IMG/VR virus record: IMGVR_UViG_2698536313_000022
Location: 1 to 2,754 of that record
Reading direction: 5' to 3' (one strand)
DNA: 2,754 bases
Source: a virus
Lineage: Duplodnaviria; Heunggongvirae; Uroviricota; Caudoviricetes
In this document: piece by piece, positions 1 to 1,450 of the stretch
Layout: each line of letters starts with the position of its first letter
How positions within the stretch are numbered: position 1 is the first letter of the stretch
Position numbers and translations under genes: made by a program
Notes under the pieces: generated by a model
Database searches by the model: none
What the model was told of the DNA's origin: nothing
Seen by the model: the letters and a program-made list of their open reading frames with translations, nothing else

Positions 1-201
1 TTACCCATTGGCGCGGCTTAAGAGCTTATTTTTGAATTCACAATGGTCACGATATAACCATCTTGCTCGACCGTGGATAACTTTGGCTTTTGGCAGGTCG
101 CCGGACTTAATCCGGTCGTAGATGAAGGTTTTACCAAAGCCAGTATCGGCCATGATGAATTTCAAATCAACCAGTGAATCAGGTTGTAGTTCGTGTTGCA
201 T
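1..201 (-). CDS. AlpA/Xis-like excisionase-family DNA-binding protein (66 aa, complete)
   Basis: Complete ORF from ATG (201..199) to TAA (3..1), with GGAG 9 nt upstream of the ATG. The translation ...LVDLKFIMADTGFGKTFIYDRIKSGDLPKAKVIHGRARWLYRDHCEF... fits the winged-HTH signature recalled for the phage AlpA / P4 Vis family (TG-x-S/G-x-x-T-IY-x-x-I-x-x-G-x-F/LP-x-P/A-x-K/V-x-G-R-x-x-W-x-x-x-E/D-x-x-x-F/W). Its position at the end of an ea-type module is where xis/alpA normally sits next to int. Confidence 0.7.
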   Translation of the reverse strand: MQHELQPDSLVDLKFIMADTGFGKTFIYDRIKSGDLPKAKVIHGRARWLYRDHCEFKNKLLSRANG

Positions 202-240
202 GAGTGCTATCTCCGAATAGGGAATCGAACCTGCAAATCA

Positions 241-270
241 GGCAAGAAAAAACCGCCATCAGGCGGCTTG
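241..270 (-). terminator. Rho-independent terminator downstream of the zinc-ribbon gene
   Basis: Read on the minus strand: 5'-AAGCCGCC-UGAU-GGCGGUU-3' followed by UUUUUUCUU. The core is a 5-bp GC stem (CCGCC/GGCGG), extendable by G-U and A-U pairs, with a 4-nt loop and a T-tract. It lies about 64 nt after the stop at 333. The plus-strand reading has a poorer T-tract, so it is mainly unidirectional. Confidence 0.65.
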
Positions 271-332
271 GTGTTCTTTCAGTTCTTCAATTCGAATATT
301 GGTTACATTGTTTTCATATATGAATAAATAAA

Positions 333-512
333 TTAGCTTTTTTCGTTGCCTTCGCGTTCTTTATTAATTTTGACAAAATCGTTTTTACCACGCTCTCCAA
401 ATGCGTCTTTAGAGTCGTTGTATCCGCAATCGCAGCACACATAATCATCAGACCATCCACGCATTGTTTTTTCTTTTGCAATATTTCCAGAACCGCATTT
501 TGGACAAGACAT
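333..512 (-). CDS. Small stand-alone zinc-ribbon protein (59 aa; CPKC-x22-CCDC), function unknown
   Basis: ATG at 512..510 is preceded by GGAGG with a 7-nt spacer (minus strand ...TTTGGAGGTAGTGATATG); stop TAA at 335..333. Translation MSCPKCGSGNIAKEKTMRGWSDDYVCCDCGYNDSKDAFGERGKNDFVKINKEREGNEKS has two Cys pairs spaced as a zinc ribbon and a Lys/Glu-rich tail. The TTG start at 545 given by the ORF track has no Shine-Dalgarno and is probably not used. Hand count gives about 39% GC for this gene versus roughly 53-57% in sampled stretches of the neighbouring 609..1256 gene. Confidence 0.65.
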   Translation of the reverse strand: MSCPKCGSGNIAKEKTMRGWSDDYVCCDCGYNDSKDAFGERGKNDFVKINKEREGNEKS

Positions 513-608
513 ATCACTACCTCCAAAGCATGAGAGAGATGACAACGTAACATTGATTGGAGATTAACAATAGATTGCTGATGTAAAAGATATGTATAAG
601 CTTAGCTA

Positions 609-1256
609 TCAAAGGGGAGGCTCTGGTAGCGGCATCCAGTGTGACGGTTTCCACGACGCACCAGGAATTATCCACCCATCATTAGCGTCAGGATGCCCCG
701 GGATGTAAGTCGCCCATTTCATTCGCCAGTCACCTTTCCTGTCAAACTCCCTGGCAACAAGAACGGCTGTTTTGGTATCCGGCATTCGCTCACTACAGCT
801 TATCCAACCATCAGGAGTTACCGGAGAGTTGCCGGGTTCTTTAATGTGCAAGCGAGGCTCACCATCTTTTGGCTCAGGCCACTGGCGCTCCATGTTGATC
901 TTCAATTTATCTTCCATAGCAACGTTAATTTCAGCATCGCTGATGCCAGCACGGCGCTGTGCATCCCACAACAGAAACTGCATATCAGCCCACTCGCTAA
1001 GATCGTCTGGTTCGGCTGCGGCTTCCAGTGCCTCTTTTGAGAGATGTTTCAGCGGACCAATGGGGCCAACGCAGCCAAATGTGGAGTCAGACCATTTGGC
1101 ATGCTCGTGGCGAATCTGTTCGCGTTCCAGTGATGCCAGCGCAATTCGTGCCAGTTCTTCCGCTTCTTCTGCTGGCAGTACAACGTTGCTACCCGGTCCG
1201 TATGTTTCGCGCCACTGCTGGATTGTCAGCAGGCGTTCTTTGGTAATAGTGGTCAT
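609..1256 (-). CDS. Phage DUF550 (dATP/dGTP pyrophosphohydrolase-like, MazG-type all-alpha NTP-PPase) / DUF551 fusion protein (215 aa)
   Basis: ATG at 1256..1254 lies 2 nt after the upstream gene's TAG (minus strand TAGCTATG), with AAGGTG 6 nt upstream. The N-terminal about 130 aa are acidic and helical (EEAEELARIALASLEREQ..., LSEWADMQFLLWDAQRRAGISDAEINVAMEDKLKINMERQ), consistent with prophage DUF550 proteins. The C-terminal about 70 aa (DGWISCSERMPDTKTAVLV...WMPLPEPP) match the DUF551 motif pattern I recall from enterobacterial prophages. Assignment is by pattern recognition, not a computed alignment. Confidence 0.75.
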   Translation of the reverse strand: MTTITKERLLTIQQWRETYGPGSNVVLPAEEAEELARIALASLEREQIRHEHAKWSDSTFGCVGPIGPLKHLSKEALEAAAEPDDLSEWADMQFLLWDAQRRAGISDAEINVAMEDKLKINMERQWPEPKDGEPRLHIKEPGNSPVTPDGWISCSERMPDTKTAVLVAREFDRKGDWRMKWATYIPGHPDANDGWIIPGASWKPSHWMPLPEPPL

Positions 1257-1258
1257 AG

Positions 1259-1450
1259 CTATTTCACCTTAATCTCAACATTTCGCAGCTTTAGCTCTAC
1301 TGGCAGGTCTGACTTTCCGGTTAATGCTAATGCGAGATTTTCTGGAGTAATGAGAGCAGTTATTGTTTTCCCCCTCGCCAGACGAATAATCATTCGTATC
1401 TCGCAATCGTCACATGCTCCCGGTCGAACAATTGAGATTTGTCCGTTCAT
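1259..1450 (-). CDS. Hypothetical small protein (63 aa), no family recognised
   Basis: ATG at 1450..1448 is preceded by a near-consensus Shine-Dalgarno (minus strand AAAGGAGAGTGAGATG, 6-nt spacer) that overlaps the last codons and TGA stop of the upstream Ead-like gene (TGA-G-ATG). Stop TAG at 1261..1259 is 2 nt before the next start. Translation MNGQISIVRPGACDDCEIRMIIRLARGKTITALITPENLALALTGKSDLPVELKLRNVEIKVK. The longer 117-aa version in the ORF track would overlap the Ead gene out of frame and lacks an RBS. Confidence 0.6.
   Translation of the reverse strand: MNGQISIVRPGACDDCEIRMIIRLARGKTITALITPENLALALTGKSDLPVELKLRNVEIKVK

Follow-up and report, generated by a model that had tools for sequence, protein, structure and literature searches.

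The window analysed here, a 2,754-nt stretch of DNA from a Caudoviricetes virus (IMG/VR record IMGVR_UViG_2698536313_000022, positions 1–2,754), carries all of its genes on the minus strand. Read in the direction of transcription, these encode a ZapA-like small protein (2539–2754), a TraR/DksA-type zinc finger (2219–2440), Ead/Ea22 (1452–2222), a 63-aa ORF (1259–1450), a dATP/dGTP pyrophosphohydrolase-DUF551 fusion (609–1256), the stand-alone zinc-ribbon protein that is the subject of this report (333–512) and a TorI/AlpA-type excisionase (1–201). The gap between the last two genes is occupied by the lambdoid intrinsic terminator t'I (244–269, minus strand) and by a cII-dependent pI-type promoter for the torI-like xis (208–246, minus strand), which includes TTGC-N5-TTGC at 233–245. 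The promoter assignment was transferred from the annotation of phage HK620 (“promoter: phage integration”, “cII protein”), whose match to window positions 200–780 is 97.9% identical and spans the promoter stretch; this promoter belongs to the neighbouring gene and lies outside the zinc-ribbon cassette.

The zinc-ribbon ORF is, with near certainty, the eaG gene of phage P22, also known as hkaD in HK620, as “Eag protein” in RefSeq and as phrog_2945. Nucleotide identity to P22 eaG reaches 97.8% over 180 of 180 nt, the HK620 copy is equally close (97.8%), the Sf101 Eag gene is identical (100%), and identities across P22, HK620, Sf101, HK629/HK633 and Stx phages range from 97.8 to 100%. The similarity extends over window positions 243–641, which are 97–99% identical to P22, HK620, Sf101, HK629, HK633 and some Stx phages. 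At the protein level, the phrog_2945 profile matches residues 1–58 (E = 5.3e-31), and the RefSeq entry WP_001277762.1 (“Eag protein”) has the same coordinates as the window ORF. In P22, in HK620 and in the closest E. coli prophage alike, the final ORF ahead of t'I, at the xis end of the PL operon, is eaG. P22 and HK620 EaG agree with the window copy in start codon, in leader and in the surroundings of the terminator, with no material difference; the flanks do differ, in that the window has a torI-type xis like that of HK620, whereas P22 instead has eaC and xis. The window protein also carries Asp22 where most other copies have Gly. The P22 record (L06296) itself labels the protein assignment “EaG(?)”, and a search of the literature on eaG, Eag and hkaD returned genome annotation tables only, with no functional work and no transcriptome that takes in the gene.

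In the closest complete E. coli genome, the genes run on a single strand in the order cIII-kil-gam-bet-exo-...-DksA-like-Ea22-dATPase/DUF551-EaG-torI. Since the window genes follow the part of this order downstream of exo, the window's eaG can be placed at the xis-proximal end of a lambdoid early-left (pL) operon. Between ea22 and xis there is known to be a variable gene set under pL control (PMC8614690, PMC10834534), and record L06296 describes the P22 “Ea” genes as early proteins of the PL operon. eaG is best read as a dispensable accessory gene at the variable xis-proximal end of this operon, a region referred to as exo-xis.

The coding sequence itself was delimited correctly by the original prediction, positions 333–512 of the minus strand encoding 59 aa followed by TAA. 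A strong Shine-Dalgarno sequence of its own was likewise anticipated, and GGAGGT is found at 519–524 (minus strand), separated by a 6-nt spacer from the ATG at 512 and annotated as a ribosome-binding site in P22 (L06296). The proposal that this ATG, rather than a TTG at 545, is the start codon agrees with the RefSeq, P22 and HK620 records, all of which annotate ATG512; as every diverged EaG homologue also starts M-x-C-P, the rejection of TTG545 was right. A GC content of about 39%, against 53–57% in the adjacent gene, had been counted by hand, and computation gives 38.9% for eaG (GC3 31.7%), 53.1% for the upstream gene (609–1256) and 46.7% for the whole window. The low-GC zone is wider than the ORF, with the whole block 243–641 at 38.3%, and the GC content of each EaG family member falls 4–12 points under that of its own locus; low GC characterises the EaG family as a whole, the window copy being no special case. 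Because dN/dS over the core codons 1–38 is 0.08–0.31 against diverged lineages (whose leaders are unalignable and whose synonymous sites are saturated), eaG is a real translated gene under purifying selection. In Salmonella phages 22 and 34, a 1-nt deletion in eaG rewrites the tail of the protein, which is consistent with dispensability of the gene, and phage replication is known to tolerate removal of the exo-xis stretch (PMC10834534).

The description of the product as a stand-alone zinc ribbon is borne out by two conserved CxxC knuckles and by a three-stranded ribbon in the AlphaFold2 prediction, whereas the spacing originally given for its motif, CPKC-x22-CCDC, needs correction: cysteines occur at positions 3, 6, 26, 27 and 29, making the pattern CxxC-x19-CxxC. 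Cys3, Cys6, Cys26 and Cys29 are invariant in 10 sequences that are 29–83% identical to the window protein, while Cys27 is not a ligand, being replaced by Ser, Gly, Val or Leu in homologues. Homologues 29–56% identical to the window EaG retain C3, P4, C6, S8, K13, D23, C26, C29 and F38, and nearly always G19-W-S/T-G22-D-Y24, whereas charge and variability mark the 20 C-terminal residues, with a frequent K-W/L-K-L-K ending. Modelled from the family alignment, the protein forms a three-stranded antiparallel zinc ribbon (strands 11–16, 19–26 and 32–34) with a pLDDT of 74–85 over residues 1–40 and of ~51 in the disordered tail. By this predicted fold, EaG is a stand-alone zinc ribbon with a disordered charged tail.

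To generic zinc ribbons (HVO_2753/aS21-type, the TFIIB Zn ribbon and S27ae), EaG bears a resemblance in fold only. It shares their two-knuckle, three-stranded architecture, but matches to these are sub-threshold, and context and motif differ. Sequence searches of the PDB with the single protein and with the family profile returned generic zinc ribbons only (E >= 0.002), Foldseek against PDB and BFVD gave no match at E <= 0.001 (the top BFVD match being unnamed), and PADLOC yielded no defence-model match, only zinc-ribbon noise from Cas12 models. Pfam gave a sub-threshold match to HVO_2753_ZBP, and NCBIfam several zinc ribbons, all sub-threshold. The family itself is small: a full HMM scan across 1.84 billion representative proteins yielded no more than 17 matches, and a profile search of a larger collection recovered 72 EaG clusters (about 70 at 90% identity), those with a source name coming from E. 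coli, Salmonella, Cronobacter and Enterobacter. A scan of genome contigs with a peptide pattern requiring Gly22 picked up one locus on a 1.1-kb “Kocuria” scaffold; as the scaffold appears to be contamination, this locus is uninformative on the taxonomic range of EaG.

The intrinsic terminator expected after the gene is present as a hairpin, yet it starts 64 nt past the stop codon and proves to be the t'I of the lambdoid backbone. The hairpin (269–250, minus strand) comprises 8 bp, 5 of them G-C, and is followed by the U-tract TTTTTTCTT; the 47-nt stretch that contains it (236–282) folds at -14.6 kcal/mol (z = -2.5). Record L06296 names the P22 hairpin t'I and gives it as identical to lambda 29106–29165, and in BK000583 the same hairpin, on the other strand, is the terminator of the aI RNA. 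Alignment to lambda shows that the two sequences have window positions ~243–306 in common and nothing beyond. Lambda orf55 (lambdap35) ends in ...VTNIRIEELKEHQAA*, and exactly its last 16 codons are left in the window (259–306, minus strand, from the lambda alignment and the lambdap35 translation), their stop codon falling within the loop of the hairpin. The orf55 remnant marks the recombination joint. The presence of both the orf55 tail and the backbone t'I indicates that eaG recombined in upstream of a pre-existing terminator, displacing most of orf55.

In keeping with its place in the backbone, t'I is conserved in phages that lack eaG, namely lambda, 434, 933W and Sf6. The slot upstream of it is filled in 933W and Sf6 by a different, 103-aa gene (L0063-like), and lambda orf55/Ea8.5, 933W L0063 and Sf6 gp19 are positional equivalents of EaG, all of them small accessory genes upstream of t'I, albeit with no sequence similarity to it. 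For these, the predictions are an alpha/beta protein in the case of orf55 and a hybrid of homeodomain and zinc finger in that of Ea8.5 (PMC8614690). In Sf6, the matching segment lies partly within the annotated “boundary sequence” bsq2, which consists mainly of gene 18 and the pI promoter.

Presence or absence of eaG in relatives is patchy. Among phage records, eaG occurs in 39 and the terminator segment (240–310) in 169; among 5426 complete E. coli genomes, eaG occupies 335 places in 329 genomes and the terminator segment 3202 places in 2487 genomes. These counts come from redundant collections in which many records are P22 isolates, and by them the t'I segment outnumbers eaG four- to tenfold in loci. 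The limits of the exchanged unit were located by comparing 82 eaG loci (80 IMG/VR contigs together with P22 and HK620), in every one of which the block 247–640 is present. On the xis side, homology breaks at 239–247 in 50 of the 82 and runs on into the same torI-type xis in the other 32; on the upstream side, 56 of the 82 break at 640–647, within the final ~12 codons of the DUF551 gene that precedes eaG. The segment 513–640 (minus strand) combines the eaG leader with the last ~32 nt of that gene and holds the upstream mosaic junction. The leader (516–608, 93 nt) is itself found in 39 phage records, with an organism breakdown equal to that of the 39 eaG records. From the block limits and this co-occurrence it follows that the mobile unit is the leader plus the ORF, always docked on t'I. 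eaG moves as a ~400-bp low-GC mosaic block (window ~247–640), and in the slot this block stands in place of other small genes, lambda orf55 among them.

All EaG homologues lie within accessory regions of temperate enterobacterial phages, at several kinds of position. Lineages L010-13, L095, L101 and L105 have the gene at the xis-proximal pL end; L008, L103, L106 and L108/109 have it in the nin region, mostly just upstream of ninB; it stands beside a pol III theta homologue in L096 and L106, and near the terminase gene in L098. A DUF551 gene is found immediately or closely upstream of eaG in the window, in 82 of the 82 close loci and in L013, L103 and L106, and the association between the two is suggestive.

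The leader of the window copy offers several candidate control elements. A conserved 14-nt motif, ACATATCTTTTACA / ACAYAWCYTTTWCA (582–595, minus strand), occurs once per eaG locus, 66–69 nt before the ATG, in the window, P22, HK620, L008, L010-13 and L095; it is missing from lambda, 933W and Sf6, and zero chance matches are expected. Comparison by eye with boxA, IHF, CRP, TyrR, Pho, Tor box and cII sites gave no convincing match, and the long-range pairing between the motif and the start-codon region in the minimum-energy fold of the window was rejected (z = -0.56, with no complement in other lineages). Nearer the gene, an anti-SD stretch AAUCUCCAA (556–564, minus strand) is able to pair with UUGGAGGU in the RNA fold. 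The computed probability that the Shine-Dalgarno sequence is paired in the window is 0.99, a value matched by 14% of shuffles. Across the family, pairing is predicted (P >= 0.95) in 7 of 10 lineages; sequestration is weak in the window copy and strong in L014, L101 and L103, and L014 and L103 have long stems, with folding energies of about -26 to -27 kcal/mol for the 87-nt leader regions. Rfam found nothing relevant on the whole window.

Promoter signals are similarly uneven. A consensus scan and a re-scan, the latter applying the same criteria to the window and to the closest leader type, found no minus-strand consensus sigma-70 site between 513 and 660. An extended -10-like element, TGtTACGTT (544–552, minus strand), ends 31 nt before the ATG and may be a weak promoter; its hexamer agrees with the consensus at 3 of 6 positions only, and the promoter scans found no -35 element for it. 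A -10-like hexamer ending 30–31 nt before the ATG nevertheless recurs in 6 of 8 other lineage representatives, as TATTAT, TATCAT, TATGAT, TATAAT and similar, and 0 of 5000 shuffles reach 6. A second type of leader (type B), seen in L014/L108, L101 and L105, has consensus-grade promoters and also long SD-sequestering stems, and a canonical intrinsic terminator lies within 65 nt past the eaG stop codon in 6 of 12 lineage representatives. Some autonomy of transcription within the EaG family is plausible.

Morons, as known from lambdoid phages such as HK97, are optional genes of atypically low GC content with a downstream terminator and a patchy spread, and their defining property is expression from the repressed prophage. 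The original prediction saw such an element here, and part of that reading stands: eaG resembles morons in being optional, horizontally exchanged, atypical in base composition, patchily distributed and followed by a terminator. It differs from them in that the terminator belongs to the backbone, a consensus promoter is absent and the gene replaces others instead of splitting neighbours, relatives filling the slot with orf55 (lambda) or the L0063-like gene (933W, Sf6) where a moron would be inserted between otherwise adjacent genes. Because the slot is otherwise filled, the terminator is backbone and the predicted promoter is only a weak candidate, eaG is an exchangeable accessory cassette and not a textbook moron. 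The stronger proposition, that eaG is a true moron active as an autonomous unit in the repressed prophage, running from the weak extended -10 (544–552) to the terminator (250–269) and helping its lysogen, for instance through superinfection exclusion or defence, is somewhat unlikely. Its patchy distribution and its low GC across relatives would fit, as would the fact that its operon varies from phage to phage while a leader of its own, 75–170 nt long, goes with it in every case; the position-conserved -10-like hexamer, the consensus promoters in the leaders of L014/L108, L101 and L105, and the intrinsic terminators after the gene in half of the lineages (6/12) point the same way. Against it stand the window hexamer, with half of the consensus positions and a missing -35, the standing of t'I as part of the lambdoid backbone, the placement of eaG in line with the pL operon in a slot that relatives fill rather than leave empty, and the lack of any match among the PADLOC defence models. 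It is rather doubtful that the family constitutes a self-contained, translationally gated cassette encoding an uncharacterised zinc-ribbon effector. On that account the unit would include a leader of its own, with the 14-nt motif, -10-like element and SD-sequestering stem; it would enter either early operon just upstream of terminators that are under antitermination control; and the effector might be, for example, a new anti-defence protein or a modulator of RNA polymerase or antitermination, with the GW[ST]GDY hairpin as the surface that binds its target.

As regards the protein, the closest named look-alike is Lar/RalR of the Rac prophage, and on one rival reading EaG would be a restriction-alleviation protein of that type, a small zinc ribbon protecting phage DNA that lacks modification against type I restriction. 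Like EaG, Rac Lar/RalR is a small (64 aa) stand-alone CxxC...CxxC ribbon of weak similarity, encoded near xis in a lambdoid prophage. EaG scores E = 1e-4 with Pfam Lar_restr_allev, many EaG clusters carry PF14354 among their precomputed Pfam tags, BLASTP aligns 54 residues with RalR (E = 0.007), and a Lar-family protein comes second in the viral (BFVD) fold search (E = 0.14). The scores are nonetheless below threshold throughout, for BLASTP, Pfam, NCBIfam and hhalign alike, and family membership was rejected: the score is 23 bits for PF14354 (cut-off 28.6) and 14.5 for TIGR03655 (cut-off 39.6), and hhalign gives a probability of 7.2% with the ribbon alone aligned. EaG members match the TFIIB-type ribbon (7/10) as well as they match Lar (6/10), and the HVO_2753 type likewise; R49-W50-N51-x-R53, invariant in RalR relatives, is missing in EaG, just as the conserved GW[ST]GDY hairpin of EaG is missing in Lar; and some eaG-type prophages (L012) already encode Ral. 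A restriction-alleviation role of this type is improbable, and the Lar label that the collection's precomputed Pfam tags attach to EaG is not justified. Reasoning by analogy with RalR/RalA, one might also suppose EaG to act as the small toxin in a toxin-antitoxin-like module of type I, silenced by the SD-sequestering leader, as RalR is annotated as a type I toxin and the Shine-Dalgarno is predicted to be paired in most lineages, with the long stems of L014 and L103. That supposition is very improbable: the homology to RalR is unconvincing, EaG has no hydrophobic or nuclease motif, and the pairing in the window is equalled by a seventh or so of shuffles (14%), while the lack of an Rfam match and of a plus-strand promoter-like site near 200–650 is weak negative evidence as regards an antisense sRNA. 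Least probable of these readings is that the ORF is non-functional or decaying and merely hitch-hikes on a recombination-prone boundary sequence. Frameshifted copies do exist, including those of the viable phages 22 and 34, and exo-xis deletions are compatible with phage replication (PMC10834534), but the core dN/dS of 0.08–0.31 across lineages with saturated synonymous sites, the invariant zinc ligands and retained GW[ST]GDY across homologues of 35–56% identity, and the conserved strong Shine-Dalgarno all speak for a maintained gene.

The reading preferred here, held with moderate confidence as a whole, is that the locus is the known eaG, an accessory cassette embedded in the early operon and not an autonomous moron, and that its product is a non-enzymatic zinc-ribbon binder. 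The gene would be transcribed mainly by read-through, coming last on the pL transcript under N antitermination. Unmodified transcription would be stopped by t'I before xis, insulating xis/int, which would have their own cII-dependent promoter downstream. The protein contains no catalytic motif and would act as a non-enzymatic ribbon in which Cys3, Cys6, Cys26 and Cys29 bind one zinc ion. The conserved hairpin (K13, G19-W-S/T-G-D23-Y24) may then be the surface that binds, and the tail, fast-evolving and rich in Lys/Glu, would be disordered. EaG may bind its partner via the hairpin, with the basic tail assisting. Most likely this would amount to stoichiometric binding of a host or phage macromolecule early in infection, modulating host physiology or defence.

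As to the role that such binding may play, an anti-defence or anti-restriction-like protein binder can be put forward tentatively. A regulator of development that binds nucleic acid or RNA polymerase is a little more doubtful; a regulator role has also been proposed for the exo-xis proteins Orf73 and Orf55 (PMC8614690), in line with this option. It is rather unlikely that EaG is an exclusion or defence factor expressed by the prophage, and more unlikely still that it does something outside these categories. That it is a toxin is very unlikely, and that it has no role is equally so.

The name eaG dates from the deposition of the P22 PL-operon sequence, and the gene is an ordinary one and not a new type of element. 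A phage specialist will find few surprises in it; the lambdoid exo-xis region has its variable “dark matter”, and eaG is part of that. What has been newly described is the extent of the mobile cassette, of which the terminator is backbone and not cargo, and a small enterobacterial EaG family with a conserved hairpin of putative binding function and conserved leader elements. The exo-xis region influences the decision between lysogeny and lysis, and hence the release of Shiga toxin. A function for EaG, were one to be established, for example in anti-defence or in modulating the development of Stx phages, would fill a further gap in the picture of exo-xis.

Upstream of eaG, a tightly packed gene that encodes a 63-aa protein (window 1259-1450, minus strand; phrog_1222, function unknown) has a GC content of 43.8% and returned no Pfam match. 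In the window this gene is flanked by Ea22 and by the dATPase-DUF551 gene, which lie directly adjacent to one another in L102, the closest of the complete E. coli genomes; the pattern of a gene inserted between neighbours therefore fits the 63-aa gene better than it fits eaG.

Within eaG itself, an A-rich run, GCAAAAGAAAAAAC (window 471-482, minus strand), occupies codons 11-14, and several database variants (P0019, P0033, and P0034) look like frameshifts beginning at this run, which may reflect sequencing errors or slippage. A further locus, H214 (NZ_OY754382.1, 1491782-1491872), contains no more of eaG than its initial 91 nt, which are overlain by a gene with the annotation 'phage anti-RecBCD protein'; this locus is a recombinant joint within eaG.

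The leader carries a conserved 14-nt motif, ACAYAWCYTTTWCA (window 582-595, minus strand; 4920-4933, 4918-4931, and 1306-1319 in the homologue-bearing loci L008, L010, and L095, respectively), which precedes the start of eaG by a constant 66-69 nt across lineages whose leaders are otherwise unalignable, and which matched none of the known binding sites with which it was compared. In L010-L013, a 21-codon mini-ORF, MAKSAAERKAALTQPFQFSAA (4883-4948), overlaps the upstream gene's stop codon and spans this motif; its ATG is ATA at the equivalent window position.

Downstream, eaG homologues of the nin region that lie just upstream of ninB (L008, L014, L103, and L108) are followed, about 15-60 nt past the stop codon, by a conserved hairpin without a U-tract (GTCATCGGAGCCTGAACAACTCCGGTGAC in L008, L014, and L103; divergent in L108), which, like t'I in the window, places the homologue just before a conserved structured element. 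L014 (NZ_JAVHZE010000050.1, 1115 bp) was deposited as Kocuria sabuli, an actinobacterium, and carries an eaG homologue of enterobacterial type; the leader of this homologue and the flank downstream of it match the corresponding parts of the lambdoid nin-region loci L108, L008, and L103, and the scaffold is probably a contamination of that assembly.

For the torI-type excisionase, a pI-like promoter and a cII-type activator site (window 208-246, minus strand) were transferred from the HK620 annotation; they follow directly on the t'I hairpin, with TTGC-N5-TTGC half-sites at 233-245 (minus strand) whose spacing is 5 nt rather than the 6 nt of lambda. In the L010-L013 and L095 prophages, whose EaG homologues are 48-51% identical, the next gene, beside xis and int, encodes 79-84 aa and is preceded by a near-consensus promoter, TTGACA-17-TACTGTATATAAATACAG (about 5185-5240 in L010-L013; about 1640-1665 in L095), that overlaps a LexA box, which suggests that this gene is SOS-inducible.

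Finally, the gene upstream of eaG (window 609-1256, minus strand) encodes a fusion protein that matches PF04447 (dATP/dGTP pyrophosphohydrolase) at E = 2e-41 and carries a C-terminal DUF551. The upstream junction of the eaG cassette always falls inside a DUF551 gene, within its final ~12 codons, and DUF551 genes also adjoin the diverged homologues in L013, L103, and L106; a functional link between DUF551 and eaG is possible.
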